61,700 nucleotides of DNA from a virus. Lineage: Duplodnaviria; Caudoviricetes. Under the pieces are notes generated by a model. The model was not told the DNA's origin. It did not search any database and saw only the letters and a list, made by a program, of their open reading frames with translations. How positions within the stretch are numbered: the first letter of the stretch is position 1; every line of letters starts with the position of its first letter. Below, piece by piece: positions 7,674-60,600 of the stretch. The position numbers were made by a program, and so were the translations under genes. The stretch lies in the IMG/VR virus record IMGVR_UViG_3300044681_000784, positions 1 to 61,700 of that record. The stretch is one strand, 5' to 3'.

Positions 7674-8480
7674 TTATGGATAGCTTAGCATGATTTCGCT
7701 TTCAACAGCGAACAATTCAACAGCAAATGTTGAGTTATTTTCAAGAGTGAATATGCAGTAGTGACCAAACACACCATGAGACTCAGCAACCGCATTCTTA
7801 ATAAACAAGAAGTACGGATCCTGTATCCCTATTGGAGTGGTCCCGGGAATCGTGGTGTCAATAACAATCTGATTTATACCATTCGGCAGGTCAACATTGA
7901 CAGCGGTAACCTCACCGGCCAATAACGGAGTGGAGTAGGTCGGAGGTAACGCAAAGTAAAGCATATCTCCAATGCTAATGATACCGCCAATGGATATCAA
8001 CGGAGAAATAGAAAACGAAATAACCGTAGCACCGGGAGGGCCTGACACAGAAACACTTCTCCCAATTCCATTCAAAGAACGCAAAGGAAAGTTCTGTACA
8101 GGATTGGCCGGCACAGTCCCCGAGTTTCTGACAAAAGCAAAGTAAGACTGCTCCTTCTTCTCAAACCAAGCCTTCTGAATAAAGCCGGTGTCCTGAATAT
8201 CTGTCTCCAAGTTTGCTGACCAACTGTCATCACCCTCCAAGTTTAACGTCTTGAAGATCTTATTTGAAAGAGACTCCTGATTGAATATGCTCGTCATCTT
8301 CGACGTGTACTGAACACCATAGAAGTTATTCCTTACAGCGTTCACATTATGGCGGTACAAGTTCCCACCTTTGAAGGTGTAGAAATAGTTGTTCATCCCG
8401 ATCATCCAATCAGGCTCGAAAGAGTAGAAGGAAGGCCATCCTTGTACCCCGGGATCATACGATAGTGTGTATACAGCCAT
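7674..8480 (-). CDS. Tail protein resembling the C-terminal blades of the crAss-type nozzle/stabilization protein
   Basis: TLSY...GWPSFYSF.P..MIGMNN.FYTFKGG.LY.HN and KIFKTLNLEG...W...KE..YFAF motifs; located in the tail module. Confidence 0.55.
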   Translation of the reverse strand: MAVYTLSYDPGVQGWPSFYSFEPDWMIGMNNYFYTFKGGNLYRHNVNAVRNNFYGVQYTSKMTSIFNQESLSNKIFKTLNLEGDDSWSANLETDIQDTGFIQKAWFEKKEQSYFAFVRNSGTVPANPVQNFPLRSLNGIGRSVSVSGPPGATVISFSISPLISIGGIISIGDMLYFALPPTYSTPLLAGEVTAVNVDLPNGINQIVIDTTIPGTTPIGIQDPYFLFIKNAVAESHGVFGHYCIFTLENNSTFAVELFAVESEIMLSYP

Positions 8481-10165: not shown

Positions 10166-10168
10166 ATT

Positions 10169-35189: not shown

Positions 35190-36815
35190 TTAACTTTGGG
35201 TTTCATATGAACGGGCCATCGTTACAATGGCGTTAGTACTCAAAATCGTAGTGGCAACACTAACCGCATTCTCCAACGCACTCCGGGTTACCTTCATCGG
35301 ATCAACAACACCAAGCTTGAACAAGTTCCCAATGGCACCCGTCTTCAAACAAATCCCCTCGTTGTACGTCAAAGCATTGTCACTATAAACCCCAAGGTCA
35401 CAGTACCCGGAGTTCAAAAGGATCTGACGCAACGGAGCACCAATAGCACTCGAGATGATCTCCCTCGCAGCCATGTGCTCTGCACCATCACGAACCCTCA
35501 CAGCATCGTTAAAGTTCTCAGAGATGTGGTGCAACGCCCTACCTGCCCCGGGAAGAATACCCTCCTCTAAAGCACTGCGAACAGCACACACCGCATCGTC
35601 CACCCGGTCAAACAACTCCTTCTGCTCAATGTCTGTGTTTCCACCAACAAAGATCACACCTACTCCACCGGATAACGAGGCAATCCTGCTCAAGATAAAC
35701 TCCCGGTCCTCCTTCCTACTCGACTCCTCATACGCATCGCGAAGCTGAGCAACCCTGCGATCAACCTCCTCGCCATCGGTCCGGTAGTCCGAGTTCACAA
35801 TAACCGTACTGTCACGACTAACCACAACCTTGGCAGCGTGGCCCAAGTCCGCGTAGGTCATCAACGACAAGTCATCACCTGTCTTCTCAGAGAAGTATGT
35901 AGCACCAACACTAACGGCAATGTCACTCATCAACTCGTGCTGCTTGTACCCAAACTGAGGTGGCTGTATCGCAACAACCTTCAAGTTGTTCTTAATCTTG
36001 TTCGCAGCCAACGTGTTCACAACATTTGTACTGCAAGGAGCAATGATCAACAACCTCTTGTTTTCAGAAATCACCGGCTTCAACACCTGCTCAATCTGCA
36101 AAATATTACTGATCTCAGCGTCCGACACCAAGATCATCACGTCCTCATAAACAACCTCGTCCCTCTTCTGATCGTTTACGAAAAGATTACTCAAGTATCC
36201 CCTCTCAACCCTAAACCCATGAGAAATCTCAGAGTAAGTCTCCGAGTTCTGAGAACGCTCAACGGTAACAATACCGTCCCGACCAACCTCGTTGTACACG
36301 TCCGCAATAATACGGCCAATCTCCTTGTCATTGTTCGCGGATATAGTAGCGACGTCTAACAGCATCTTCTTACTAACTTGTTTCTTTCGAGTCTTTAGGA
36401 CGTCGACTACCGTATCCACCAATCTTGTCATCTCCCTCAAAACCTCCGTCCTGTTCAACGAAGTGTTACTCCCCAAAACCCTCATCCCATTCTCAACCAT
36501 GGCCTCCGTCAAAACAATAGCCGTAGTGGTGCCATCACCGGCAACCGTAGCGGTACGATCCGCCGCTTGCTTCATCATACGAACAGCTAAGTTCTCAACC
36601 GGATCCAACAAGTCAACAGACTTCGCAACAGTAACACCATCCTTGGTCACCGTCATGCCACCAAGATGATTGCTCGACTCAATCAGCACAGTGTTGCCAC
36701 TCGGACCTAACGTGCTCTTCACAGCACCGGCCATCTTCTTTACACCACTTAACAGCTTTCTCCGGCCATCTTCGCCGAACACCAAGTCCTTTGGTGAGTA
36801 TCCAATTTCATTCAT
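35190..36815 (-). CDS. groEL: Chaperonin GroEL (541 aa)
   Basis: TLGP.G, TKDGVTVAK, AGDGTTTA, SAN.D, DRVDDA..A...A.EEGI..G.G and DP.KV.R.AL.NA.S.A motifs; no GGM tail; promoter at 36834-36841. Confidence 0.95.
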   Translation of the reverse strand: MNEIGYSPKDLVFGEDGRRKLLSGVKKMAGAVKSTLGPSGNTVLIESSNHLGGMTVTKDGVTVAKSVDLLDPVENLAVRMMKQAADRTATVAGDGTTTAIVLTEAMVENGMRVLGSNTSLNRTEVLREMTRLVDTVVDVLKTRKKQVSKKMLLDVATISANNDKEIGRIIADVYNEVGRDGIVTVERSQNSETYSEISHGFRVERGYLSNLFVNDQKRDEVVYEDVMILVSDAEISNILQIEQVLKPVISENKRLLIIAPCSTNVVNTLAANKIKNNLKVVAIQPPQFGYKQHELMSDIAVSVGATYFSEKTGDDLSLMTYADLGHAAKVVVSRDSTVIVNSDYRTDGEEVDRRVAQLRDAYEESSRKEDREFILSRIASLSGGVGVIFVGGNTDIEQKELFDRVDDAVCAVRSALEEGILPGAGRALHHISENFNDAVRVRDGAEHMAAREIISSAIGAPLRQILLNSGYCDLGVYSDNALTYNEGICLKTGAIGNLFKLGVVDPMKVTRSALENAVSVATTILSTNAIVTMARSYETQS

Positions 36816-37940: not shown

Positions 37941-38140
37941 TGACTAAACTCACAAAAAAAATTGCGCTCTACAGCCCTTTGATAGCAAGGGATTCAGAAT
38001 TTTAACATTTTTTTTTGCTTCCCACATTTGGTAGTTTAAAAACTTCTAACGTACTTTGTCATGTTGCTAGTCAAAACATGAACAAAAACTTGTATATATA
38101 TAACCACACGCACGATAATAACCACACACACGATATCACT

Positions 38141-38175
38141 AATCACTAATCACTAATCACTAATCACTAATCACT
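38141..38175 (+). repeat. (AATCACT)5 tandem repeat in the leader of the first early gene
   Basis: Five perfect copies; the same heptamer recurs before several early start codons. Confidence 0.9.
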
Positions 38176-38183
38176 TATCAATC

Positions 38184-38681
38184 ATGAAAATCGCAAGAAG
38201 AATGTATCTAAACATCGGGAAAGCTAACAATCCCTTTGGACAATTTACGGATGAACAATTTGCAGACCTTCTATATAGTCTGCCCGACATTCACAGCAAA
38301 CCACACGTCGAAACCCATGTTGGAGAATGGGAAGGTCAGCGCGAAGAGACCTTTGTGGTAGACCTTATACACTATGATGATGACGCATCATCAAGAACAG
38401 AATCATATTACAAGTTTATCAGCACATTGCTATCCTTCACTACTCAGGATGCCATTGGAGTAATTTCCTTTGATGGCAGAGTAGATGAATCTGCAGGATA
38501 TGTAGAACGCGTTTGGCTGAATGGAGCGGAATTGAGGGAGTATTACTTCAGCAGTCCTCGTCTATTTTGGCATTACGGAGTAGAGCAGAAATATGAATTT
38601 AACAATGAATTCTTCATCATGCCATCTACCATAACTGATGTAGAGCGCGAAGCACATCAAAGAACGCTAAACTTGAAATAA
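38184..38681 (+). CDS. Putative SAM lyase (T3 SAMase-like) anti-restriction protein
   Basis: G-E-W-E-G-Q-R-E-E-T and Q-D-A-I motifs align by eye with the T3 SAMase G.Y...EE.T...QDCV motifs; first rightward gene. Confidence 0.5.
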   Translation: MKIARRMYLNIGKANNPFGQFTDEQFADLLYSLPDIHSKPHVETHVGEWEGQREETFVVDLIHYDDDASSRTESYYKFISTLLSFTTQDAIGVISFDGRVDESAGYVERVWLNGAELREYYFSSPRLFWHYGVEQKYEFNNEFFIMPSTITDVEREAHQRTLNLK

Positions 38682-38685
38682 AAAA

Positions 38686-38703
38686 TGTCTCTTCGAAGAG
38701 ACA
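38686..38703. promoter_or_regulatory. Perfect 18-bp palindrome TGTCTCTTCGAAGAGACA, copy 1 of 5
   Basis: Identical copies at 40119, 40168, 41897 and 43721. Confidence 0.9.
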
Positions 38704-38716
38704 AAATTCCAAACCC

Positions 38717-38920
38717 ATGATTAAAACTAAAAAAATATCATCAGGTCATTACCAAGGTACATACAAGAGCATTGGCTTCAAGGTCATCAAATCTATTCTG
38801 CCAAGCAATGAAGTAGTATGGTATTACCAAATCGGGAATGAGAAGGTGCATGATTTCCATGGGAGCAAATTTGAAGCAATTCAGTCTTTGATATCTTGGA
38901 TAGACGAGACAAAATCTTAA
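38717..38920 (+). CDS. Hypothetical early protein (67 aa)
   Basis: ORF bounded by the palindrome and heptamer repeats. Confidence 0.7.
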   Translation: MIKTKKISSGHYQGTYKSIGFKVIKSILPSNEVVWYYQIGNEKVHDFHGSKFEAIQSLISWIDETKS

Positions 38921-38961
38921 TCACTAATCATTAATCACTAATCACTTAAATCTTATCAATC

Positions 38962-39822
38962 ATGACAAACAAACTTCAAGCAAAATTGGGAATTAACAAG
39001 GTGAATTCTCTAAAAAGCAAAATCGATGCGAGCAATGAGAAATTGGCTCAAAACTACATTGCCATTGGCAAAATCATCGCAGAAGGCTCACTATGGGCAG
39101 ACAGCAAGGAAGGGAAGGAATTGCTGAGAGCGGAAGGTTTAACCAAAGCCGATGTGCTTACTGCCTATGGATACAGCCGTTCTTGGGCATACAAGCTAAT
39201 TGCTGTGTCTAATGTTGATGACGAGACATTGGCTGCGTACCTTGGCCAAGGCAATGTGGAATTCAATGTTGCTGACCTACTGAATTTCATTAACGCTACA
39301 GCGGAAGGTGAAGGTGAAGGTGAAGGTGAAGGTGAAGGTGAAGGTGAAGGTGAAGGTGAAAGCCAATCTAAGCCATCTACCTTGGCGAATTTAACCTTCC
39401 ATTTTGCTGCTGAATCGGTAAAGGTTAGGGTTACTGATGATGGCAAAGTTCACACCAAGAGTGACCTTGATAGCATCCGATTGGCATTGGCAGAACTTAC
39501 GCGAATTGTCGCGGAAGCAGATGCTCAGGCTCAGGCAGATGCCAAGGCTAAGGCTAAGGCAGATGCTCAGGCTCAGGCCAAGGCTCAGGCCAAGCCTACT
39601 CCAATCAAAGATTTCTCCAATGCCCTTGCATATGTTGGTGTAGATGCGCTGAAGGGAAAGGGAGGAATCCTGAATGTGGATAGCTTGCAGTATGTGGAAT
39701 TCGGGAATGAGACGTTCTTCAATGAATCGGGAGAATTGGGCAATGCCGCATCCGAATTCGTAGCGTCTCATGGATGGTCTTATCAGGTCGAAGAACCCTC
39801 TCACTTCTATGTAGCAAAGTAA
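38962..39822 (+). CDS. Early protein with possible DUF3102-like HTH, (EG)9 linker and Ala/Lys/Gln linker
   Basis: IAIGKII...YGYSRSWAYKLI pattern; (GAAGGT)9 at 39304-39357. Confidence 0.7.
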   Translation: MTNKLQAKLGINKVNSLKSKIDASNEKLAQNYIAIGKIIAEGSLWADSKEGKELLRAEGLTKADVLTAYGYSRSWAYKLIAVSNVDDETLAAYLGQGNVEFNVADLLNFINATAEGEGEGEGEGEGEGEGEGESQSKPSTLANLTFHFAAESVKVRVTDDGKVHTKSDLDSIRLALAELTRIVAEADAQAQADAKAKAKADAQAQAKAQAKPTPIKDFSNALAYVGVDALKGKGGILNVDSLQYVEFGNETFFNESGELGNAASEFVASHGWSYQVEEPSHFYVAK

Positions 39823-39836
39823 GTTAGGCAGTTATC

Positions 39837-39872
39837 GGATGGCGCAGTGGATTGGTCTGCTGCCCATCCTTT
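39837..39872 (+). terminator. Hairpin/terminator after 38962..39822
   Basis: GGATGG-CGCAG...CTGCTG-CCCATCC-TTT. Confidence 0.5.
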
Positions 39873-39895
39873 AACAATCCTTAACTATTCAGCTA

Positions 39896-39926
39896 TTGCA
39901 AATGTTCACCTTTATTATAACCTTTG
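39896..39926 (+). promoter_or_regulatory. Early promoter motif TTGCAwATGTyC...CTTTG (copy 1 of 3; others at 43665-43695 and 46091-46121)
   Basis: Three copies, each spanning exactly 31 bp. Confidence 0.65.
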
Positions 39927-39949
39927 TCAAACATTCAAACACACACACT

Positions 39950-40096
39950 ATGACACGTTACCAAATCGAACAGGAATCTATCCGCATCCGCAATGAGCGG
40001 AGGGCAAACCTGAGGAGCGCATTCATCCTCGGCATTGGGATTGTGGGATTGGCATTCAGCTATGCCATCATCATGATTCACTTCCTTGGCCAATAG
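39950..40096 (+). CDS. Small membrane protein (48 aa)
   Basis: Basic N-terminus plus one TM helix; downstream of the promoter. Confidence 0.6.
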   Translation: MTRYQIEQESIRIRNERRANLRSAFILGIGIVGLAFSYAIIMIHFLGQ

Positions 40097-40102
40097 TGGC
40101 CA

Positions 40103-40163
40103 TGCTGCCAATGGTTTTTGTCTCTTCGAAGAGACAAAATCGGTTCGATTCCGATGGCAGCAC
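40103..40163 (+). ncRNA. tRNA-like minihelix (acceptor stem plus T-arm) with the palindrome in place of the D and anticodon arms
   Basis: TGCTGCC(40103-40109)/GGCAGCA(40156-40162) 7-bp stem; ATCGG-TTCGATT-CCGAT T-arm; 24-bp palindrome at 40116-40139. Confidence 0.6.
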
Positions 40164-40215
40164 AAAATGTCTCTTCGAAGAGACAAAATCGCTAATCACT
40201 AATCAATTATCAGCA

Positions 40216-40647
40216 ATGCAAACAATCGCACAGCAGCTAAACGTAACTGAATTTCCTTTCGAAATCCATGATGCTAATGGAAATCTAATATACTATGAAG
40301 AGTCAAGTTCATATTGGTGGAAGCGTGAATACGATTCTAATGGCAATCTAATCTACCATGAAGAGTCAAGTTCATATTGGTGGAAGCGTGAATACGATTC
40401 TAATGGCAATCTAATCTACCATGAAAATTCCGAAGGCTTTTGGCGGAAATATGAATATGATGCTAATGGTAATCAAATCTACTTTAAAGATTCCGATGGC
40501 TATTGGAGCAAATGTGAATACGATTCCGATGGCAATCGAATCTACTTTGAAGATTCCTGTGGATATTGGAGTAAACGTGAATGCGATTCCGATGGAAGTC
40601 TAATCTACTATGAAGATTCCGATGGACTAATCATCGACAATCACTAA
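40216..40647 (+). CDS. 21-aa tandem repeat (YD-like) protein, paralog A
   Basis: 5.5 repeats of YDSNGNLIYxExSxxYWxKxE; true start MQTIAQ. Confidence 0.8.
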   Translation: MQTIAQQLNVTEFPFEIHDANGNLIYYEESSSYWWKREYDSNGNLIYHEESSSYWWKREYDSNGNLIYHENSEGFWRKYEYDANGNQIYFKDSDGYWSKCEYDSDGNRIYFEDSCGYWSKRECDSDGSLIYYEDSDGLIIDNH

Positions 40648-40654
40648 TCAAACC

Positions 40655-40684
40655 TATAGGGGCGCAGCATCCTTCAACACTGCA
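40655..40684 (+). repeat. 30-nt intergenic element, copy 1 (pseudoknot-like)
   Basis: TATAGGGGCGCAGCATCCTTCAACACTGCA, identical at 42345-42374. Confidence 0.85.
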
Positions 40685-40708
40685 CTAATCCTTTAATACC
40701 AAATAACA

Positions 40709-41035
40709 ATGGAAAAGTTAAATCAAATCATCGAATCAATGGCCTATGCCAAATTTCAAAATGATTCATGCCCCATCAAACGCAATGAATTCATAATGGA
40801 GAATGCTACATTGGGCGAATTCATTGACTACTTTCAAACCCGAAAGACATCCGATGGCACATCTTGGCATGACCGATATCATGACCTAATTTTGGGAAAA
40901 ATGGGCGGACTAAACGAGTCCTTTGTCGAAGATGTGCTATGGCCAAAACTTAAAGACAATTACATCGAAGAAGTGGTGAAAGGTCTTGAGGATAAACTTG
41001 ATGCTCAGTATAAAATAACCATTGAACAAATCTAA
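40709..41035 (+). CDS. Hypothetical early protein (108 aa)
   Basis: ORF in the early array. Confidence 0.7.
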   Translation: MEKLNQIIESMAYAKFQNDSCPIKRNEFIMENATLGEFIDYFQTRKTSDGTSWHDRYHDLILGKMGGLNESFVEDVLWPKLKDNYIEEVVKGLEDKLDAQYKITIEQI

Positions 41036-41041
41036 TCAGCT

Positions 41042-41293
41042 ATGTCACTATCAGCGTTAATAGAGAGAAACAAAAACGTCATTCTGCCTGAGCTATATGC
41101 TTGGGCAGAGACCTTCCGATTGTCCGATTTCCCTTCTCGCTTTGATGAAGAGGAAGACAATTCATTCGATGAAGTATGGTCATTGGCCGAGAGATTGGAC
41201 AATGGTCAATGTACGGAGGATGACTACGAAGAAATCATCTTTCACATCGAACAGATTAATTATAACGAAACCAAAATCAATTTAACCATTTAA
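41042..41293 (+). CDS. Small acidic early protein (83 aa)
   Basis: ORF in the early array; Asp/Glu-rich. Confidence 0.7.
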   Translation: MSLSALIERNKNVILPELYAWAETFRLSDFPSRFDEEEDNSFDEVWSLAERLDNGQCTEDDYEEIIFHIEQINYNETKINLTI

Positions 41294-41306
41294 TCAATTA
41301 TCAGCT

Positions 41307-41876
41307 ATGGCTACATCTAATTTTATCACCAACAATGCAAGCAGAATCTTTGTCATTCCGATTCAAGAAGAATTTGATTTCGATGATGCTGCTGCCAATG
41401 TGACTGCATCCCTTATCGGCATTGGCCATGAGTCTACGAGAGAATCATGGGACAGGTACGATGGCAGATACATGACGGAGAAGTTTATGAATGAATGCGT
41501 TTGGAATCCTGAGAATGGAAAGCCAATTGAATTTGATGTCCACATTAAAACTTGCATCAGGTCAGGTTACTATTCCGATGCCAATTTGGATTGGGAGATT
41601 GGCTATTCCTTGGAAGGATATGGCGAATTGGACATCCAATCCGTTCCTGATGAGGACTACATCAAGGAGTTATTGGACAGGAATTCGTATGCTGTATCAG
41701 GCGAGACCGATTCCGATATCTTTGACCTGTTGGCATCCATGATAAGGGAGAGGATTGTCCGAATGATGTCGAGTCTTGTCGAAGAGACAGAGAATGAATT
41801 CCGGCAGAACAGCAGCGCATCACTTCGATGTGTTGGTAGATTCTCCAATGGCGAAGCAATTTACGAACAAGAGTAA
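41307..41876 (+). CDS. Acidic early protein (189 aa)
   Basis: RSGYY..ANLD and FSNGEAIY motifs. Confidence 0.7.
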   Translation: MATSNFITNNASRIFVIPIQEEFDFDDAAANVTASLIGIGHESTRESWDRYDGRYMTEKFMNECVWNPENGKPIEFDVHIKTCIRSGYYSDANLDWEIGYSLEGYGELDIQSVPDEDYIKELLDRNSYAVSGETDSDIFDLLASMIRERIVRMMSSLVEETENEFRQNSSASLRCVGRFSNGEAIYEQE

Positions 41877-41951
41877 CCATTTAATCACCACAAAAATGTC
41901 TCTTCGAAGAGACAAAATCACTAATCATTAACCATTTAATCTTTATCACTT

Positions 41952-42338
41952 ATGTTGGTAGCAATCAATTTAGACATTGACCTTGAGTCAATATTCGTAA
42001 CGGCCTTAGAAGGCGGAAGTAACTATTGGATTGACTTCAGCTCATCCACATTCAAACATCTCAAGGATAAGTATTCGCAGATGTCATTCTCCGAGCGAGT
42101 TTACAATGAATTCATCAGCGGAGGAGCCATTGATGTCTTGGATGTTGAAGGTGATGAATCGGATGTCATCGGCCAAATATCCTTGGCCACTGCACCTTCG
42201 AGACTCGCCAAGATGTTTGAAGATGGCTTCATTTGGAGTCATGCAGACATTTCAGAGTTATTGGATGGAACTGCTGATGCCATTGCGTCAGACATTGTAC
42301 TTCAGTACCTTGCGTTAGGCGAAATAGTTTACGGATAA
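41952..42338 (+). CDS. Conserved phage hypothetical protein (128 aa)
   Basis: TALEGGSNYW...DA...D..LQ...LGEIVYG pattern. Confidence 0.7.
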   Translation: MLVAINLDIDLESIFVTALEGGSNYWIDFSSSTFKHLKDKYSQMSFSERVYNEFISGGAIDVLDVEGDESDVIGQISLATAPSRLAKMFEDGFIWSHADISELLDGTADAIASDIVLQYLALGEIVYG

Positions 42339-42344
42339 CAAAAA

Positions 42345-42374
42345 TATAGGGGCGCAGCATCCTTCAACACTGCA
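42345..42374 (+). repeat. 30-nt intergenic element, copy 2
   Basis: Identical to 40655-40684. Confidence 0.85.
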
Positions 42375-42398
42375 TTAACCATTTTATCTTTATCAATT

Positions 42399-42629
42399 AT
42401 GAACATTTTCATCATTAACACTACAGCCTTTGAAGAAGAGGATTTCTTTTTGCTGACTGACCTGAGTGAGCAAGACATTGTCGAAGTGATTACACCATTG
42501 GTGAATCAGGCGCGAGACGGATACGAGGAGTATGACAATGACCTGTTGGTCAATGCTCTCATTGAGCGTTATCCGAATGCCAAGATTGAGCATTACTGCA
42601 AAGATGCGATTGATTTAATAACCTTTTAA
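42399..42629 (+). CDS. Small acidic early protein (76 aa)
   Basis: INTTAFEEEDF.L.T.L ORF in the array. Confidence 0.7.
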   Translation: MNIFIINTTAFEEEDFFLLTDLSEQDIVEVITPLVNQARDGYEEYDNDLLVNALIERYPNAKIEHYCKDAIDLITF

Positions 42630-42638
42630 TCAGCAGCC

Positions 42639-42896
42639 ATGATACATAACGAGCATTTCGATAAGGCCGACAGAACCTACGAGGTTTGGCACGACAACAA
42701 TGGCAATGCCATTCACATCTTAATCAAGGATGGGGAGGCCATCATCTACCCTACAATCTATGACCTATTTCAGCATTTCCTATGCGGAATGGATGTTGAG
42801 AGAATGTACGTTGATGATGATGTGCTGAACTCAATCTGTGAATTAAACATCTACAATTACTACGAAATCAAAAACAAAATCAATTATCAATCATGA
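42639..42896 (+). CDS. Hypothetical early protein (85 aa)
   Basis: ORF with ATGA coupling to the next gene. Confidence 0.7.
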   Translation: MIHNEHFDKADRTYEVWHDNNGNAIHILIKDGEAIIYPTIYDLFQHFLCGMDVERMYVDDDVLNSICELNIYNYYEIKNKINYQS

Positions 42897-43633
42897 AAAC
42901 AATCGCGCAGAATTTAAACATCAAGGACTTTCCCTTTGAGATTAAGGATGCTAATGGCAATCTAATCTACCATGAAGATTCCACTGCCTTTTGGTGCAAA
43001 TGTGAATGCGATTCTAATGGCAATCTAATCTACTATGAAGATTCCGATGGCTTTTGGCGGAAACATGAATACGATTCTAATGGAAATCAAATCTACCATG
43101 AAAATTCCGGTGACTATTGGAACAAATGTGAATACGATTCCAATGGTAATCAAATCTACTTTGAAAATTCCTATGGCTATTGGAACAAACGTGAGTACGA
43201 TTCCAATGGCAATGAAACCTACTTTGAAGATTCCGGTGACTATTGGAACAAATGTGAATACGATTCCAATGGCAATCGAATCTACTTTGAAGATTCCTGT
43301 GGATATTGGAACAAACGTGAGTACGATTCCAATGGCAATGAAACCTACTTTGAAGATTCCGATGGTGAAATCATCGACAATCGGATTAATGAAGATGTCA
43401 AATTGGTAAATGAAGATGAGAGCGCGAGACAAGTCCTTGAGGGCATGGGGTACTATGTCCGGAATCTATGGTCAGTAAGTGACGTGAACGGATTCAATGG
43501 CAAGGTTTCAAAAGAGGAGGCTCTTAAGATTTTGGCTTCAGCACTAACCCATCCGTACACCATGGAAGTAGTCTTTGGTTTGATTAAAGATGGAGTCAGG
43601 GATTTTGGATATAAAATCGAAGACGAGTCTTAA
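42893..43633 (+). CDS. 21-aa tandem repeat (YD-like) protein, paralog B, with extra C-terminal domain
   Basis: 6.5 repeats plus an ~80-aa C-terminal domain (GYYVRNLWSVSDV). Confidence 0.8.
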   Translation: MKTIAQNLNIKDFPFEIKDANGNLIYHEDSTAFWCKCECDSNGNLIYYEDSDGFWRKHEYDSNGNQIYHENSGDYWNKCEYDSNGNQIYFENSYGYWNKREYDSNGNETYFEDSGDYWNKCEYDSNGNRIYFEDSCGYWNKREYDSNGNETYFEDSDGEIIDNRINEDVKLVNEDESARQVLEGMGYYVRNLWSVSDVNGFNGKVSKEEALKILASALTHPYTMEVVFGLIKDGVRDFGYKIEDES

Positions 43634-43753
43634 CAACATTTAAGAATTCATGGGGCATGGCCTATTGCATATGTCCCATGTTCTTCCAACCTTTGACAAT
43701 CAAATCACATAACACAAAAATGTCTCTTCGAAGAGACAAAATTCTAAATCAAA

Positions 43754-44239
43754 ATGGAAAAATTAATCATTAACTTTCAACAGAATTTTGCGTGGACTCG
43801 CTCCGCAAATAATGTTCTTTCCGTAACATCAAACAATGAAGACATCGTGCTTATTGTAGAGCATTTCGACATCTCAAGACTCGAATACGAAGACGCACTG
43901 CCACAGATGGCTGTTGTCGGTGATGGATTCTTCTTCGTGTACGATGGTAGTGATTTCTATCTTGGAGGCCAAGAGCCTATAGAAATATCGGAGACTGAGG
44001 TGTTTTTCGAGGCCACAGGTGACGTATCAAAGCCTATCTACTACCATTACAATGAGTCATGGCACTGCTCCCTACACAACGAAGAGACCGACAAGATTCT
44101 TCGCGAGGCTAACTCCATGCTTACCAATGGCAAGGTGAGTAAGATTGTTGGTGACGAAGCTGTTGACTCCATCTACGTTAGAAGGGGAGCGTATCGTGGT
44201 GCTAAGTTTATTCAAGAACAAATAATCGCAGCCAAATGA
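43754..44239 (+). CDS. Hypothetical early protein (161 aa)
   Basis: ORF after promoter copy 2 and palindrome copy 5. Confidence 0.7.
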   Translation: MEKLIINFQQNFAWTRSANNVLSVTSNNEDIVLIVEHFDISRLEYEDALPQMAVVGDGFFFVYDGSDFYLGGQEPIEISETEVFFEATGDVSKPIYYHYNESWHCSLHNEETDKILREANSMLTNGKVSKIVGDEAVDSIYVRRGAYRGAKFIQEQIIAAK

Positions 44240-44472
44240 CATCCGAGCGTATAGTTTTTCGGGGAGTTACCTACCCATTGTACATCGTATCTGTGGATGG
44301 AATTGACCATCATCTTTCTGTTGTTGCGTTAGCAGATGCAATCTTCGATGAGAACGAAGAGTTCGTTTCGGATGAGGCATACAGAATAGACATGGGCATA
44401 TCCTACTACCTGAGTGATGACGAGTTAAATCTTTCTACAATTCAAATTCAAAACTTAATTAGAAACCTATGA
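44236..44472 (+). CDS. Small acidic protein (78 aa)
   Basis: ATGA-coupled ORF; A..ID..I.YY motif. Confidence 0.7.
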   Translation: MTSERIVFRGVTYPLYIVSVDGIDHHLSVVALADAIFDENEEFVSDEAYRIDMGISYYLSDDELNLSTIQIQNLIRNL

Positions 44473-44984
44473 GACCGATTGATTATGTAAACAGAATGGC
44501 AGAGCCATACAGAAGTGAGTTCATTGCAAACACCTTGAAGTGGAGGGGAAGGGAGGAAGGAGCAAGGTGGCTGAACGAATACTCAGATAGATGGAATGGA
44601 TTCAACCAAGTAATCTATGGAGCATTCCCTTGGAGCGTAACAGAGCAAGGCAGACGCTATTGGGCGGCAGCCTACAGGCTTTATGGCGGAAAGAGTTTCA
44701 GTCCGCTAACTGCTGAAGACTTGGCCGAGTGGTCGAACATCACTGCTGTTGGAGATGAGACAGATGAGATTACCTTTTGGCAGGTTATTTTTAATGGAGA
44801 GATTCATTCCGAACACAAGAACTACACCGATGCTTTCACTGTCTTTGACAGGCTTAAGTACGGAGAGGGAGAGGAAGTCATCGGCCTTAGAGAGTTCTTG
44901 TCTCGGTCTGTCGAGTTATTTCAAAGCAGATGGGCACTTAACAGAGGTCAGCACCACATCCAAACAACCACAATACGGAGATGA
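44469..44984 (+). CDS. Hypothetical protein (171 aa)
   Basis: ATGA-coupled ORF; AF.W..T.QG..YW motif. Confidence 0.7.
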   Translation: MRPIDYVNRMAEPYRSEFIANTLKWRGREEGARWLNEYSDRWNGFNQVIYGAFPWSVTEQGRRYWAAAYRLYGGKSFSPLTAEDLAEWSNITAVGDETDEITFWQVIFNGEIHSEHKNYTDAFTVFDRLKYGEGEEVIGLREFLSRSVELFQSRWALNRGQHHIQTTTIRR

Positions 44985-45238
44985 TTTGGAAGCACATCAT
45001 TGAGCCATTGACAGGTCAAATAGACAGATGGTTCTTCAGCCTATCGATGGCTGACAAGCGAGACATATTGGGTGAGGGGATTGGTATGTATGGGATGCTT
45101 AGGCTTTGGGGTTCTATGGACTTGGAGCAGAAGATTCGGACATACGATATGTACCATGAGACTCACCCATCCTCATCAGTAGGTATATTTGTTGGGGAAT
45201 CAAACGATTCATTAACCATTAAATTCAAAACACCATGA
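44981..45238 (+). CDS. Hypothetical protein (85 aa)
   Basis: ATGA-coupled ORF. Confidence 0.6.
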   Translation: MIWKHIIEPLTGQIDRWFFSLSMADKRDILGEGIGMYGMLRLWGSMDLEQKIRTYDMYHETHPSSSVGIFVGESNDSLTIKFKTP

Positions 45239-45735
45239 ATAACTTAATGTATATTTTTGGAGGAGTCTTAGGCTTCTTCATTGGGTTCTTTGTGATACCA
45301 AAAGACAACGGCATTTCAAAGTACATTCAAGACGAGCCTACTATTGACTCGTGTGTGTCAGTAGTCCATGAATCTCCGGAAACAAAACAATTCCCTGACT
45401 CGCTGATGACATTGGTTGATGCCATGATTCAGGTAGAGAGCAGTGGAAATCATTGTGCCTACAACAAGAGGGAGGATGCTGTTGGATGCCTACAGATAAG
45501 ACCTATCATGGTCAGGGAGGTGAACAGGCTGTTGGGTAGGGAGGAGTACACGATGAATGACAGGTGGGACTACACCAAGTCTTTGGAGATGTTCCTTGTT
45601 GTGGTGGAACACCATCATCCTGATGGATCATTTGAGGGCATAGCGAGGTGTTGGAATGGTGGCCCGAATGGTATGCGGATGGAGTCTACCAAGACGTATT
45701 GGGAAAAAGTTTTGTCAAGGATAGGTTCTTCTTAA
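45235..45735 (+). CDS. Membrane-anchored lysozyme-fold protein (i-type/destabilase or SLT-like)
   Basis: N-terminal TM; AMIQVESSG, A.GCLQI, AR.WNGGP.G...YW motifs. Confidence 0.75.
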   Translation: MNNLMYIFGGVLGFFIGFFVIPKDNGISKYIQDEPTIDSCVSVVHESPETKQFPDSLMTLVDAMIQVESSGNHCAYNKREDAVGCLQIRPIMVREVNRLLGREEYTMNDRWDYTKSLEMFLVVVEHHHPDGSFEGIARCWNGGPNGMRMESTKTYWEKVLSRIGSS

Positions 45736-45759
45736 TTTTTTCTTAGTTTTGCAGACAAT

Positions 45760-45867
45760 AGTCAGGTGGCGTAAGTGTGAATGAATAGCACTGAAAAGGT
45801 AACGCATCAGTGGGATAGCATCCCTTAATATTTCTGATAGATGCAAGTTCGAATCTTGCCCTGACTA
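45760..45867 (+). ncRNA. tRNA-like RNA with expanded D and anticodon loops
   Basis: AGTCAGG/CCTGACT acceptor, GCGT/ACGC D stem, ATCAG/CTGAT stem, GCAAG-TTCGAAT-CTTGC T-arm; promoter TAGTTTTG at 45744-45751. Confidence 0.7.
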
Positions 45868-45930
45868 CAACTTGTCATTAAAGGTGCAAAAACCAAAATG
45901 TTGTGTGCCTTTATGACCACTTAATAATAT

Positions 45931-46004
45931 TGCGGAGTAGTAGCAGTTGGTAGCTCGTCAGTTTCATAAGCTGAAGGTCGTGGGTTCGAGTCCCACCTCC
46001 GCAA
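45931..46004 (+). tRNA. tRNA-Met (CAT), initiator-derived variant
   Basis: Cloverleaf TGCGGAG/CTCCGCA, TCAGT-TTCATAA-GCTGA, GTGGG-TTCGAGT-CCCAC; no encoded CCA. Confidence 0.85.
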
Positions 46005-46234
46005 CATTTAATTCAATTTAGTATGAGCGATTTTATCAGAAGGAAGATCTTAATCTTTAAATATCTTTAACAAATAAAGTGGAACTGCGCTTGCATATGT
46101 CCATTATTATTATAATCTTTGTGTATCAATATAATAAACAATGAAGTTTTTTATTTGGTAGTTACAAACAGATTGCATATCTTTGTTGGCGAAGCGAATG
46201 CGCCCTATGTCATTCGCACACAGACACTAATCAA

Positions 46235-54620: not shown

Positions 54621-57600
54621 TTACTTGCCGTATGCCTCGTCCTTTATGGCCTGCATCTCCTTGTCAATCTCTCTGTCCATCTCTTTTATCTCTTCCCTGA
54701 CATCGTATCCGGGAGAGTTCGGGCCGTAAACATCATCGTACAGATCCGGGAAGTACCGCTTCATATCCCCCTTGTTCATGCCACCTTGTTGCTTTTCTTC
54801 TGTATCGGGCCGGTAAGACTCGGTAATTCCAAGCATATCGTACGTTGCAGCGTCTTCCTCCTTTTGGTCGCTCGCACCGAAGAAGTAATTGTAAATGCCA
54901 ATGAACGGATCAAGCTGAGCCCCAATTATAATCTCAATGATAGGCTGAGTCGCTCCCCAAATCTCTCCTTCAGATAAATATTGCTTAGATTTTTGGTACT
55001 TTCTGAACAGTGACATGAATGGGTTTACAGTATCGTCAGCCTTTCTGAAGTCACCTTCTGCGTAGGACACCATGGTCTCTACAGCAGATCCAATAAGTGG
55101 GATTGAGTATATCAGGTTCAAGCCAAGCATGGCATTACGCATAGCCTTCAGTGCCTCTTCCTTGTCCTCTTCATCGCCCTTGATAAACTTGGCAAGGTTG
55201 GCCCCACCAACAAACAGCGCGTTTGTAATAGCTACGTTCAACATTAATCCGCGCACATCTTTTGCTTTAGGTATTTTTCCCTTTGATATGCTCCTCATTA
55301 TGTTGGTAGAGGTCTGAGCAGTCTTGTTCATCATCAAGAAAACTGTACTTCCAAACATGGTGAACAACCTTTGGAACTCATTGTTGCTCATTTGAATTGG
55401 AGACTTCTCGGTAGCTCTTCGAGACTGCTGTGTTGCATTGTAGTTGTTGAAAGCCTCCAACGCTTCAGCTTGAGTAAAGCCTTGCTTTATCATTCTGTTG
55501 TACACAGCCATGTAACCAAGGACGCCTGTGATGTCACCAAGGACTGTAAATGATCCGCCCGATGTTTTAAAAGCCCTTCTTGCTTTGGCCCAAGCAGAAG
55601 ATGATTTAGATATAGGCCGGAACAATCCGGTGCCTGACTCCAAGCCATAAACGTCACCCTCCAAGCCTTGGTCCAACCTGTCCTTTACGTTGGCAGACAT
55701 ATTGTAAGCCTTCTTAATTTGAATTGGCAACGTCGCAATAATGTATGCCATGTCAACCATAAACATGATGTGGTCCAACACAGGAGTAGGCTTCCCTTTC
55801 CTTACTGTGTAGTCTTCAAAAGCTTGTACAAAAGAAATTCCCTGCTTAACAATTTGAATTGCCTTGAAAGCGAGTGCAAAGCCTGTGAACTTGGATGCTA
55901 TCTTACCAACAAAAGTTGATGGCTCACGAGTCATTGACTCAGGATTTATGGCGAAGTTCAGGGCCCTCATTATCATGGGCTTTGTTCCTGTCTGTTCAAG
56001 GAGTGTAACCACATCTTGAAGCTTGAAAATCTGAGCAATCTTCCGGACTCCAACCGCCATGGCCTTGTATTTCTCCATTGACCGGAAGTGAGCGTCAAGA
56101 ACTGATGTAAAGTCGGCACCATCGATATCGATCTCGCCCTTGGTGTCTGTCCTCTCCTTAAGTGCCGGAGCTGTTTCTGCATTGAACGTAGATCCAAAGT
56201 CACCGGACTCCAACACCTTGCCATCAATTCTTGTTTGAATGGTTTTGGTCGGGAAGTAGTTGCTGACGTATCCAAGGTTTACGTTATTAACGTATGAGTA
56301 CACGTTGTTTACAGAGTCGAAGTACGAGTTTGACAGGTAGTCAACCACTCCATCAGCAACAGCCTTTTGCTTATCAGTAAGAGCAGCCTCAATCTCATTG
56401 ATGTCTATGCCCATTTCAATGAGCTTCTTCCTCTGAACATCGTTCTTACTTAGAGCGTAAAGCCTTAGTATTTGATCGAGGTTAAGTGGTGACTTGTATG
56501 TTCCAACCTGAAGAAAAACAGGGGGGCCACTCAAACTTCTTGTGAAGTCCTTGTAGTTTTTAAATCCATTTGCCCGGGCCAATCCATCAAGCATTAAAAT
56601 CTGATTGAAGTATCCTCTCTTGGTAGCCTCATCCATCCTGTTTAGCGCATCGTATACGTTCTTCTTGAAGAAGTCACCTCCCTTGTCCAACACATTCAAA
56701 AGAGTACCAAGGTGGTATATCTTCTTACGCATGAAGTCATGAAAACCGGTTACAGTTTGGAAGTCTATGGTCTTTACCCAACCCTTAATCCCTTCCCAAA
56801 TCTTTAGGCTCCGGAAGTTTTCCCATATCATTCTCCTTTCTGCAGCAAGTTGGTTCTTTCCTTTCAGAGTTCCATCTTCGTTGTAAAGTATGCCAAAGTC
56901 AGCCTGAATTTGGTCCTTTGCCTGTTGGTTCAGCGATGATATCTCACTGCTAAGGACAAGCTTGTCAGCCTTCAGTCTAACGATACCTTCCGATGCGATC
57001 TCCTTCAGTCTTTGAGCAAGCATATTGAGTGCTTCCATGTGCTGCCATGGGCTCGGAGAAACACCTGTACTTGTAAAGCCTGTCAGAAAATCTCTGACAA
57101 CTTCCAACTCCTGCAAGGCAACCGTAGTGTTAAACGCAGCTCTCTCCTGAGAGGTAAGCTCCTCCCCGTTGTCTAACTTCTGCTGAACAACGTCAAGGTC
57201 AATACCCTTTAAAGCCAACACAGCCGGATCTACAGAGTCCATTATCCTGTCGATTGCGCTTGAGTCTCCGTCTCTCGCCTCCATTGTTATGGCCCTGAAC
57301 ACAGACTTCATCGTGGCGAATAGAGATTGGGTGTCGGCATCAACCCTTCCTGCCCTTCTCTTCCCTGACTGAGTAGAACTAATCTTGGCAGCCTTGTTTA
57401 TTATAGCAGAGATTTCTTTCACCTTAGCCTTGCTCATCTTTGTCAACTGCCGAGTAACAACGTCGAGAACCTTTTGAGCTTGCTCGCTAAAGTTATCAAG
57501 AGTTGTGTTGGTGATGGCTGAGATCAACCTGTTGATTTGAGCCTGAGTAAATGCTGAAGACTTTGGAAGCGTTGTCCTTATGTAGTTCTTCAATTGAATC

Positions 57601-60600
57601 TGAGCAGCAAGAAGCTGTTTTCTTCCTGTTCTCATGTCTCTTATCTCTTTACGCTGAGCTTTCAGAGTAGCTTCAATCTCCTTCTTTGCCATCAACTCCT
57701 TCTGCTTCTCAATCAAATTGAGAACGCGCTCGGCCTGAGCGTTGAAGTTATTGACATCTGTACTGCCAACCAACCTTACAAGACGCTCTATTCGGGCCGG
57801 GCTGAAGCCACTTGTTTGTGGCAACACATCGGAGATGAAGTCTATGAGCTTCTTCTGAGCAGCAGCAAGTTCTTTGATGCCCATCTTCTTGGCCGCCAAT
57901 CCCTTTTTAATCTGAGAAATCTGAGCGTCCACAGACCTGTTGGCCCGGGTAGATAGAGATTGGTCAAAGCCAATCAACAACTCGTCCTGCACAATCTTTG
58001 CTTGGGCCTTGAATATCGGATGATCCTTTAATAGTTCGATGGCCTTTTGCCGGACCTCAGACATGGTCCTTGTCCTTTCCTTGCCATCCGCTTCCTTCAC
58101 CTTCTTGCGAGCGTACTTGCTCAACTGCTGACGAACATCAGCGTACATCTTCATCCCTTCTTTTACCCCACCCTGTACGTTTGTAAATGACTGAGGTAGG
58201 TTGGTCATAAGGTCCACCTTTACCTCCAAGGCAGTGTTTATATCACCGGCCTTAAACCCACGACGCAAAAGTATTTCCTTGATGGACTGATCGGAGAAAC
58301 CATTTGCCCGGCCAAGGTCTATGATGCTCTGCATGGAGTCTTCGGCCCGGGCCATGGCGGTAAGGCTTCTCATTGACTCAAGCTGCTTGTCAGAGATCTT
58401 CATGTCCTCACCTTGAATCATGTCGGCAATAGCGGTTTCGATAAACTTATCCAAAGACAGATCCTGAATTTCTTCAATGCTCAGGTCTTTTGACATTTTA
58501 AATTTGTTACGGACATACTCCCACATGGCAAACAAGAACTCCTGAAACTTAGACTTGGTTGCCGCATCAGAAATTTGCTGTCCTTTATTACCTATGAGTA
58601 TTGCCAACATCTCGTTCAATGCTGCCGCTTCATTGCCATCGAACTCTTCCATCTGTCTTTCGAACATGGCCTTCAACTTGGGATCGGTCTTGATTCCCTC
58701 CTTTAAAACGGATATACCACGCTCAAGTAATTGCCGGCCCTTGCTGCCGGGCTCAGAGGTTGCCAACATATTAAGCCAAACGTGACCGAACTCATGTATG
58801 ACAGTATTGAACATATCAGATTCTGAGTTGTGCACGTCGGGGTTTATGTAGATGTCTCCATTGGCAGTAACACCATAGAGGATCGCATCCCCTTTCATCT
58901 GAAGCCTTGTCCCTGATTCTGCTATAATATTATTGAAAGCTTCGGCTGTTGTATAAACCGAAACATTTGGGAATGTTCTGTTGATAAGAGAAATCAACTG
59001 CATTGCTTTTGTTCTGCTGTTGCCTACAAACCTTCCCATAAACTCAGGTAACCCCATACCTACCCCAAGAGCACTTGATGGTGGTAGGGGTTTTTTCTTT
59101 GCAGACAAAGCCTCTATGTTTTTTCCAATTATAGCACCGTAGGCTGAAGGCATTACACTTTGCACAGGCAAAGGTTTACTTAAAACACCAAAAGACATTC
59201 CTTCGGCACCATATTCATAGTTTGGATGATCAACATTGATCACACCACCTGCTTCTTTGTACGATCCGTCAGGCTGTTTTTCTGCCACCTTAACTCCTAC
59301 TATTGATGTGACCGATCCGATTGGGACATTAGCTACGGATGGATCAGCTATCACATCGATTATAGACTGTATGTGCAGAAGAGCGTTATTCTTTGTCTTA
59401 CCGATGATAGCTTTTATAAATTTATTTGTAGGAGGATTAAAAGTTTTTGTTTTAGTCGATGCGCTTCCCGAGGTAATCATTTTGATTAAAGCTGCACGAG
59501 GTCCCAAAGGCATATCAAAAATAGCACTTAAAACGTCTTCAAGACTTGAAGCATCTTTTAGTATATCAGCAGCAGAATTTGAATCCTTTTCAGATTTTGA
59601 TATTGTCTTTTTCTTTTCTCCTCTTTTTTCTCTTAGCTTATTCTCCTTTTCCTGTACCGCATATTTTTCTTTTGCGTTTATTAGGATTCTTTTCAACTCT
59701 TTAAAAGCGGCTTTCTTTTTAGTTTCAGAAAGGTTCATAGAGTTAATCCTATCAACAACAACCCTTGACAAAGCCTCGTTTGAAAGGATAGAATCTTCCC
59801 CCATTTTTACAACAAGCATTGGCACCATACCGTCGTACTTCGGATTGTCTGCCCAAAACTTTTCAATTACTTCTTTGTTGTTGTTGTATATTTCACGAGC
59901 CTTTCTTACCTGTTCATTTGCTTTTGGACGCGATACATTCGCCCAAGCCGCTTTTGCAAACCGTTTAATGCCATTGAAACCTAACCCACCAAAGAGTTTC
60001 AATATCTTGTTCCCTGTCACCGGATCTGTAACTCCTTCGTTTGACGCTACGAGATAGTCGGATATGGTTGTGAGTACAGGGACACCATTTAAAATCTCTA
60101 TGCTCACCGTCTCAAGGGGTGTATCAAGCTTTGAGTTAAGCTCATCTACATCTGTTTCCACGTCAGTATCTACCTCTGTTCCTGCTGAGAACTCAACGAG
60201 TGGGCTTTCGAGATTGTTCATCTCGTCAAGTATGGCCTCAAACTCTGCGTCTTCAGTCACTCCTGAATCTTCCCCGGCTTTCCGAGCTTGGGGGGTTTCC
60301 TTGGTTTGCCCCAACAACTCCTCTACCGCTTTAACCAACTCGGGATTGCTTCCGTCTTCCTTTGCCTTGTGGTAGGCTTCGGAGATTTCTTTATTTAACT
60401 CTTTGTCCCTGTAGATATTATTTAAACCTGTGTATGTGTTTATGTTTTTAGACAAACTATACATTCTTGGCTTTTCTCCCCACCCTTCAACTTCATACAC
60501 AGAATCATCTCCTAAATAAACTGCGTAGTGCCTTGCATCATTCTTATCTCCAAATGCTATAATGTCACCAACCTTTAATATTTTTTGCAATTCGGATACA

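Follow-up and report, generated by a model that had tools for sequence, protein, structure and literature searches.

What is the top half of a tRNA, with a hairpin in place of its D and anticodon domains, doing between two early genes of a phage? The question is raised by a 61-nt element at positions 40103-40163 (plus strand) of IMG/VR record IMGVR_UViG_3300044681_000784, a stretch of 61.7 kb (the window) that is a whole phage genome. The original prediction, made from the letters of the window, had described a tRNA minihelix whose D and anticodon half is replaced by a palindrome of the early region, and had proposed either a processing signal that cuts the early transcript or a small decoy RNA. 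Covariation among related phages bears out the structural part of this proposal. As to function, we favor, at a probability of roughly one half, a signal similar to the t-elements of plant mitochondria that would lie in the early mRNA and be cut by the RNase Z and RNase P of the host.

The acceptor stem, the T-arm, and the palindrome were all found where the original prediction had placed them, and the parts of the element are as follows.

40103-40109, plus strand: 5' acceptor-like strand TGCTGCC, pairing 7/7 Watson-Crick with the 3' strand
40110-40115, plus strand: connector AATGGT, in which A, GG, and T (columns A9, G11, G12, and T13) are constant in 7/7 copies
40116-40139, plus strand: perfect palindrome of 24 nt that folds as a 10-bp hairpin, with a core (GTCTC/GAGAC) constant in 7/7 copies
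40139-40155, plus strand: T-arm with the stem ATCGG (40139-40143)/CCGAT (40151-40155), fitting GGTTCRANYCC
40144-40150, plus strand: T-loop TTCGATT
40156-40162, plus strand: 3' acceptor-like strand GGCAGCA, abutting the T-stem with zero bases between
40163, plus strand: discriminator-like C, constant in 7/7 copies

Residue A40139 is common to the palindrome and the T-stem, and either assignment gives a 12-bp stack of acceptor and T-stem. The insert between these two stems measures 29 nt (40110-40138), and the GG of its connector may mimic the GG of a D-loop. CCA is not encoded after the discriminator at 40163. The T-arm motif reads GGTTCGATTCC in the window and GGTTCGA[GCT]TCC in the six relatives described below. 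For the isolated 61-mer, RNAfold chooses a three-way junction with an 8-bp acceptor, a 4-bp T-stem, and the 10-bp hairpin, at -26.9 kcal/mol (z -5.03), and only 1 of 200 shuffled sequences folds as well.

Related loci were collected by searching viral contigs with the Sak-like protein, which yielded 80 loci. The two closest (82% identity), L002 and L003, carry three elements of the same build each (a, b, and c), and together with the window these gave seven copies for comparison (alignment A1). Among the seven, the acceptors are TGCTGCC/GGCAGCA, AAGCAGT/GCTGCTG, TTGTGGC/GCCACAG, and AGTGGTT/AGCCACA, and the T-stems are ATCGG/CCGAT, ATTGG/CCAAT, GTCGG/CCGAT, and TTCGG/CCGAA. Standard pairs fill 96.6% of the 119 pair cells, with changes on both sides at 6 of the 7 acceptor pairs and 2 of the 5 T-stem pairs. 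None of 500 shuffles matched the observed pairing or covariation score, and sliding the partner strand by 1-3 columns lowered the pairing to 31-49%. The five central pairs of the hairpin, GTCTC/GAGAC, never vary. Seven cells hold G·U pairs for which the opposite strand would give A·C mismatches, and the fold is therefore one of the sense strand; six of the seven copies fold alone into acceptor, hairpin, and T-arm. Compensatory changes, whose absence from homologues the original prediction had named as counting against it, are thus abundant, and the reading of the element as the upper half of a tRNA survives.

Elements of exactly this build were found in few places. A search of viral contigs for the hairpin-plus-T-arm pattern returned the L002 and L003 contigs only, plus three further loci that we read as ordinary tRNAs. 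A covariance model built from the seven copies (R1) and run on 166 loci plus the window gave 71-85 bits for the training sequences and less than 33 bits for all else, the next best scores belonging to a bare palindrome (32.9) and to L015 (30.4), L098 (28.7), L115 (24.6), and L129 (23.8), which are candidates only. The exact 23-mer of T-arm and acceptor had no match in viral contigs, and the Sak-like protein searched against metagenomes recovered only the L002 contig plus relatives at no more than 61% identity. One locus in L005 (11138-11186) was dropped as doubtful, its pairing being mostly G·U, and a MAFFT alignment of 15 diverse elements (A2), which misaligned the 5' strands, was excluded from counts and modeling.

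How readily could such a fold appear by accident? We scored a pattern of T-loop TTCRANN, 5-bp T-stem, and adjacent 7-bp acceptor. With G·U allowed, it occurred at 0.235 sites per shuffled genome, and 42 of 200 shuffles held at least one; with Watson-Crick pairs only, as in the window, the expectation is 0.002, and such a site turned up in 1 of 500 block shuffles. Taken by itself, the window is only suggestive, and the homologues decide. The original prediction had also cautioned that part of the match might be a local echo of the downstream repeat gene. The identity is real, in that 14 nt of T-arm and acceptor, CGATTCCGATGGCA, recur in that gene (families D4 and D5), where they are in frame and read RFDSDGS; the idea that the fold is a mere echo did not hold, since the T-arms of relatives (TTCGACT/CCAAT and TTCGAGT/CCGAA) are free of it. 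L002b and L002c, moreover, precede genes without repeats. From these sequences, the echo appears to be incidental.

These results bear directly on the view that the element serves no function today and is there by chance or as a relic, being what is left of a tRNA gene or a local echo of the repeat gene (GATTCCGATGG, D-S-D-G), a view that we consider highly improbable. The in-frame recurrence of the 14 nt and the 42 of 200 shuffled genomes with a G·U-allowed minihelix are what such an origin would lead one to expect. It does not account for compensatory changes over seven copies, for relatives whose T-arms lack the echo and some of whose copies precede repeat-free genes, or for an all-Watson-Crick pattern expected 0.002 times per genome. 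In addition, within this intergenic and small-ORF (open reading frame) region, a DNA alignment with L003 persists for the hairpin and T-arm core alone (40120-40156, 89.7%).

The element shares with canonical tRNAs a 7-bp acceptor, a 5-bp T-stem, and a 7-nt loop of the TΨC type, and lacks the D-arm and an anticodon arm with a 7-nt loop, having instead the 6-nt connector and a hairpin with a loop of 4-6 nt. The Rfam tRNA model (gathering threshold 29 bits) gave no match at 40103-40163 even with E up to 10, and does find the sites 45760-45867 and 45934-46000 (tRNA-Met) in the same window. ARAGORN reported a tRNA-Lys(ttt) at 40079-40163, an artifact in which the real T-arm and 3' strand are joined to a mismatched 5' half. 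With these features and no match to the Rfam model, the element is not a tRNA, and Rfam has no family for it. An attP core or other tRNA-gene fragment was also considered and rejected, as the 5' strand is present and the relatives have three covarying copies with different acceptors.

The hairpin within the element is itself a repeated sequence. Its 18-nt core, TGTCTCTTCGAAGAGACA, occurs five times in the window, starting at 38686, 40119, 40168, 41897, and 43721, where shuffling leads one to expect 0.01 copies on average and none of 100 shuffles reaches five. The 24-nt extension is unique to the copy at 40119, as the original prediction had it, this being the sole copy with T's on its left flank; the other four carry AAAAT there (family D6). 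They stand alone, and one of them is the further copy that had been predicted at 40168.

38686-38703, plus strand: stand-alone palindrome, at the site where L003 has tRNA-like element b
40168-40185, plus strand: stand-alone palindrome, 4 nt past the discriminator
41897-41914, plus strand: stand-alone palindrome between early genes
43721-43738, plus strand: stand-alone palindrome past the promoter-like motif at 43665, at the site of element c in L003 and L002

The nearest named record, the uncultured podovirus MW202828 (L001), has no T-arm; ahead of its early genes lie 12-14 bare palindromes that differ in sequence from those of the window. This palindrome, GTGTCGTTAACGACAC, is found in 12-14 copies in the region 7746-14759. 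Each of L001, L053, L057, L079, L033, L063, and L076/L077 has its own perfect palindrome repeated before early genes, and in several relatives the palindromes have common TGTC...GACA ends around a variable middle, with no tRNA frame and with a TGTC-to-GACA spacing of 6 to 10 nt between phages. The hairpin sequence is the same among the copies of one genome and different between genomes. In L002 the hairpins (1745-1760, 2541-2556, 4043-4062, and 5918-5937) keep the stem GTCTC/GAGAC around a 6-nt loop that is TTCTCG or its reverse complement CGAGAA (or CGACAA), which amounts to small loop inversions. Judged from this distribution, the tRNA frame is a lineage-specific addition around an older hairpin, dispensable at individual sites.

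The same distribution invites the suggestion that the palindrome works as DNA, serving as the operator of a dimeric regulator made by the phage or as a promoter or terminator of the hairpin type, and that the tRNA-like flanks are incidental. Genome-specific palindromes do recur upstream of early genes in several related phages, and in a consensus scan the stand-alone copies read on the minus strand precede T-runs and score as terminator-like. That scan lists the palindromes on the minus strand only, and an intrinsic terminator was rejected for the element itself, which is followed by CAAAATG, with no T-run on the sense strand. The covariation, moreover, lies in the acceptor and T-stems and not in the palindrome, and the G·U pairs fit a sense RNA only. 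Nor does a DNA site explain why the asymmetric loop of L002 is present in both orientations with the stem kept, or why the TGTC-GACA spacing varies between phages. The promoter-like motif described below is not near most copies, and PHROGs and Pfam scans of 38 different proteins recognized no phage RNA polymerase, although the majority of early proteins are without any annotation. On balance, we regard a DNA feature as very unlikely.

The position of the element among its neighbors is equally regular, and the features that surround it in the window are these.

39896-39926, plus strand: promoter-like motif (TTG, 20 nt, AACCTTTG; family D13)
39950-40096, plus strand: small ORF of 48 aa with a hydrophobic C-terminal half, ending 6 nt before the element
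40186-40215, plus strand: A/T-rich leader with CTAATCAC repeats and no Shine-Dalgarno, running up to the ATG at 40216 (families D3, D8, and D20)
40216-40647, plus strand: downstream early gene of 143 aa with 21-aa repeats (63-nt period; families D1 and D2)

All seven copies are intergenic and have the same orientation as the early genes. A homologous small ORF precedes element a in both L003 and L002, so that L003a and L002a, which follow this ORF and precede a repeat-protein gene, are positional orthologues of the window element; both also have an extra degenerate hairpin ending 2 nt before the acceptor. L003 element b follows a homologue of the gene at 38184-38681, a site occupied in the window by a bare palindrome. 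TAAC comes after the discriminator C in the six relatives, and an A/T-rich leader then runs to the ATG, which lies 22-40 nt past the discriminator. In the window this distance is 52 nt because the second palindrome (40168-40185) is inserted.

The promoter-like motif has the form TTGCA.ATGT..., with TA/AA-nn-TTTG about 20 nt on, and appears to resemble the -33/-7 consensus of Bacteroidota. Copies are found in the window at 39896-39926, 43665-43696, and 46091-46122 and in L003 at 945-980 and 3562-3593. Element c of L003 and of L002 starts 3 nt past the motif; at 43665 the window has kept the motif, and a bare palindrome follows. Going by the motif, we infer that the element is transcribed, the transcript that carries it likely starting at 39896-39926.

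What would a tRNA-like frame do at such a site? RNase P, RNase Z, and the CCA-adding enzyme recognize their substrates by the acceptor/T stack, the T-loop consensus, and the GG. Such tRNA-end determinants are kept in the element (a 12-bp stack, a GGTTCRANYCC T-arm, and a constant GG that could form an elbow contact, with no encoded CCA), and the parts needed for decoding are absent. CCA is encoded in none of the 8 canonical phage tRNA genes displayed, the tRNA-Met of the window included, so that the trimming of 3' trailers and the addition of CCA must fall to the host. The idea of a processing signal, put forward in the original prediction, also fits the context, the sites being intercistronic or in a 5'-leader and co-oriented with the genes, with the ATG 22-52 nt downstream.

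We accordingly suggest, and give about even odds to, the following series of events, in which both the cleavage by host enzymes and its effect on expression are inferred. The element would be transcribed as part of the early mRNA, and the RNase Z of the host would cut just past the discriminator, at 40163/40164. If there is RNA upstream, a cut by RNase P would fall immediately ahead of the acceptor, at 40102/40103. The small upstream ORF would in this way be parted from the downstream gene, whose mRNA would gain a defined short leader starting with the second palindrome hairpin, and a tRNA-like RNA of ~61 nt would be set free that could receive CCA. In L003a and L002a, the extra hairpin would come to lie, after the RNase P cut, at the 3' end of the upstream mRNA. 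If host enzymes do make these cuts, early expression of the phage would depend on RNase Z and RNase P, which would be a new point of contact between phage and host, and the element would be a natural counterpart of the tRNA-spacer cassettes with which engineers split polycistronic RNAs.

Several observations weigh against such a signal. Among the region variants read from four DNA contig runs, the contigs of three metagenome runs (X4, X6, and X7) have the change G40156A with the rest of the element unchanged; as 40109 has no matching change, the innermost acceptor pair becomes C·A. Pair 1:72 is unpaired in four of the seven copies, which could weaken or shift the RNase P cut. The scan that found the copies required acceptor pairing, and the covariation test is to that extent circular, a concern eased by the position of all 5' strands in the same columns directly before the A-GG-T connector and by the controls with slid or shuffled strands. 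Of the three sites with a tRNA frame in L003, two have a bare palindrome in the window, and L001 has no T-arm; with bare palindromes at equivalent sites, the frame must be dispensable for the expression of the neighboring genes. At element c, 3 nt past the promoter-like motif, RNase P has little to remove, and this site is therefore not one of simple punctuation. Among the runs listed as containing window region 38000-46200, none is of RNA, and the PHROGs and Pfam scans of the 38 proteins recognized no tRNA-processing enzyme. Finally, an element that acts on translation or stability without being cut would be just as likely to show so tight a spacing to the start codon.

This last alternative, an uncut cis element placed ~20-50 nt before the start codon as a 5' stabilizer, an insulator that leaves the leader free of structure, or a docking site for ribosomes that use no Shine-Dalgarno, is plausible in outline, and we hold it to be unlikely. 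It would explain the narrow distance to the ATG (22-40 nt in the six relatives and a median of 21 nt among the wider matches listed), and it agrees with the A/T-rich leaders devoid of a Shine-Dalgarno and with element c, which would sit at the extreme 5' end of the primary transcript. It offers, however, no reason for keeping exactly the features of tRNA ends, the 12-bp stack, the T-loop consensus, and the GG, and a mimic this close should also be cleaved by a host able to mature tRNAs that have no encoded CCA. In some contigs this position is taken by canonical tRNAs, which need to be released.

Were the element released, the small RNA might itself be the product, as a decoy or sponge for tRNA-binding proteins of the host (toxins or defense enzymes directed at the acceptor end or the elbow, for instance) or as a carrier by which a phage protein is offered the genome-specific hairpin. 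The identity of hairpins within a genome and their difference between genomes would suit a sequence-specific partner, each relative has three copies, and a longer hairpin stem is seen nowhere but within the tRNA frame. We nevertheless think a product of this kind decidedly unlikely. An RNA without an anticodon loop cannot be a decoy for anticodon nucleases, the window has a single copy, and the tie between position and the downstream start codon suggests an action in cis; among the scanned proteins of the phages, which are mostly unannotated, none was recognized as RNA-binding or related to tRNA.

The proposed processing signal gains a wider setting from tRNA-like modules in other phages. In 1.96 Mb of related loci (a count that excludes L082-L087 as duplicate contigs or unrelated), the minihelix pattern occurs at 47 sites in the sense of the genes (41 distinct sequences) and at 0 antisense; ARAGORN labels 13 of the 41 as tRNA. 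In viral contigs we used the pattern GGTTCGANTCC-N10-CTAAC, which fixes the T-loop and the trailer and leaves acceptor, length, and distance to the ATG free. It gave at least 102 distinct matches, and among the matches listed 75 have a 5/5 T-stem and 27 do not. Those 75 comprise 7 that ARAGORN calls tRNA, 52 that are not tRNAs and have an acceptor partner, and 16 without a partner. A partner is thus present in 52 of the 68 listed non-tRNAs with a full T-stem, and a shuffled 3' strand finds one in 332 of 1500 trials.

The 52 listed look-alikes have a median length of 61 nt, and 33 of them do not exceed 70 nt. In 46 of them, an ATG with an ORF of at least 30 codons follows within 80 nt, at a median of 21 nt past the discriminator and at 10-35 nt in 36 of these 46. 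The first 8 bases of the connector contain GG in 37 of the 52 and TGG in 18, the latter compared with 11% in shuffled connectors. In the unbiased set of Sak loci, by reading, the CTAAC trailer is common and not universal. A role of this trailer as a promoter was rejected by eye, its spacing to the TTG-like box in the T-loop being too short. For 10 loci of the wider class, too, no Rfam family was found, the sole matches being tmRNA T-arm fragments below threshold. In L206 and L223, canonical-looking tRNAs stand at the equivalent position, which suggests that the class descends from co-transcribed tRNA genes.

A cultured example is provided by Maribacter phage Panino (PP540027.1), in which a 91-nt non-tRNA acceptor/T-arm element at about 4941-5032 (plus strand) lies in an unannotated gap of 122 nt (4932-5053) and is followed by TCTAAT and a leader, with the coding sequence starting 22 nt past the discriminator. 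The Panino genome also has two tRNA clusters. In Tenacibaculum phage Larrie (ON950054.1), two tandem T-arm-like hairpins with no evident acceptor are found near 66220 (minus strand), about 27 nt before an ATG. We found no description of such elements in phages in the literature, subscription journals and supplements lying outside the search.

The class looks common, with at least 52 non-tRNA examples in viral contigs, is absent from Rfam, and is missed or mislabeled by tRNA finders; it offers an explanation for short unannotated gaps before genes in phages of Flavobacteriia, Panino among them. Tentatively, and with somewhat less than even confidence, we propose that D-armless tRNA-like modules are widespread in phages that probably infect Bacteroidota, lie ~21 nt before start codons, and punctuate mRNAs by way of the tRNA-end machinery of the host. 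If this is true, the principle of organellar tRNA punctuation would have evolved again in a DNA virus, and a single cut would both free an mRNA and release a hairpin-bearing small RNA, possibly with a role of its own.

In the genome as a whole, portal, terminase, and structural genes are on the minus strand, and the early and replication block, which encodes the Sak-like annealing protein, an exonuclease, a primase, and a helicase, is on the plus strand. The relation to MW202828 rests on a primase identity of 75%, and more distant matches are to phages of Flavobacterium, Cellulophaga, Polaribacter, Nonlabens, Maribacter, and Bacteroides. From these relatives and from leaders without a Shine-Dalgarno motif, the host is likely a member of the Bacteroidota. 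The early-gene leaders (38119-38190, 38904-38960, 40188-40215, and 41915-41951) consist of tandem TAATCAC-like heptamers with no Shine-Dalgarno and end in ..TTATCA(N)2-3ATG.

The product of the gene downstream of the element (40216-40647) has a weak Pfam match to RHS_repeat (E 3e-4, below the cut-off). This gene and the one at 42893-43633 (plus strand) are paralogous, with 63-nt (21-aa) repeats of the motif YDS(D/N)GN..IY, and metagenome contigs show deletions and duplications between their repeat units. A second tRNA-like gene lies at 45760-45867 (plus strand), just upstream of tRNA-Met (45931-46005), and has kin in L003 (5696-5805) and at least 15 other loci. In genes of this type, the acceptor AGTCAGG/CCTGACT, a normal-looking D-arm, and the T-arm all have sequences conserved across many related phages, and the region from D-arm to T-arm is hypervariable in sequence and length (49-113 nt total). 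The copy in the window scores 39.9 bits with the Rfam tRNA model, with insertions of 27 and 23 nt, and is missed by ARAGORN. Between it and tRNA-Met is a long imperfect inverted repeat, GTCATTAAAGGTGC ... GTGCCTTTATGAC (45868-45930). On the minus strand are a GroEL-like chaperonin (35190-36815; PHROG 5725, E 6e-136) and a 2340-aa protein (54621-61643) whose sole family match is one PHROG of unknown function; the latter had no match to a polymerase family and none to a solved structure in a sequence search of the PDB, a fold search not having been made; a hairpin promoter of the N4-like kind would call for a virion RNA polymerase encoded by the phage.

The closest known counterparts are the t-elements of plant mitochondria. 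In the published account (PMC1920247), these are non-canonical tRNA-like folds found by means of GGTTCRANYCC and an acceptor-like stem; they adjoin 5' or 3' ends of mRNAs that are attributed to cuts by RNase Z and RNase P, and an excised t-element can persist as a small RNA. The phage element shares with them the GGTTCRANYCC T-arm with an adjoining acceptor-like stem, the non-canonical fold, and the place near the end of a cistron. It differs in belonging to a DNA phage of bacteria and not to an organelle and in having a genome-specific repeated hairpin for the D and anticodon domains and a tightly fixed distance to the start codon.

Functional tRNAs serve a similar purpose in animal mitochondrial tRNA punctuation and in bacterial tRNA-mRNA co-transcripts, where RNase P and RNase Z remove intercistronic tRNAs and free the mRNAs; the phage element, with no D-arm and a 4-6-nt loop, cannot decode. 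At ends of the mascRNA type (MALAT1), RNase P and RNase Z cleave a long transcript at a tRNA-like fold within it, and the small RNA gets CCA. That system is eukaryotic and nuclear and defines the 3' end of the upstream RNA, whereas the phage element likely acts on the 5' end of the downstream mRNA. Among phages, the C4 RNA of P1/P7 and the CI RNA of P4 are transcripts with an acceptor/T-like stack that are matured by host RNase P, but these are antisense or immunity RNAs of enterobacterial phages and are not known to have a canonical T-loop, a link to a start codon, or a repeated hairpin. D-armless mitochondrial tRNAs have the same layout of acceptor, short replacement loop, one long arm, and T-arm; unlike the phage element, they keep a 7-nt anticodon loop and decode. 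The RNase III hairpins of T7 early genes are likewise repeated and intercistronic and are a plausible model for the stand-alone palindromes, with the difference that the palindromes of one genome share a single stem sequence and that their stems reach no more than 7-10 bp. Mimicry of tRNAs in the manner of t-elements is known, and what sets the present case apart is its setting in a DNA phage and its fusion to a genome-specific hairpin.

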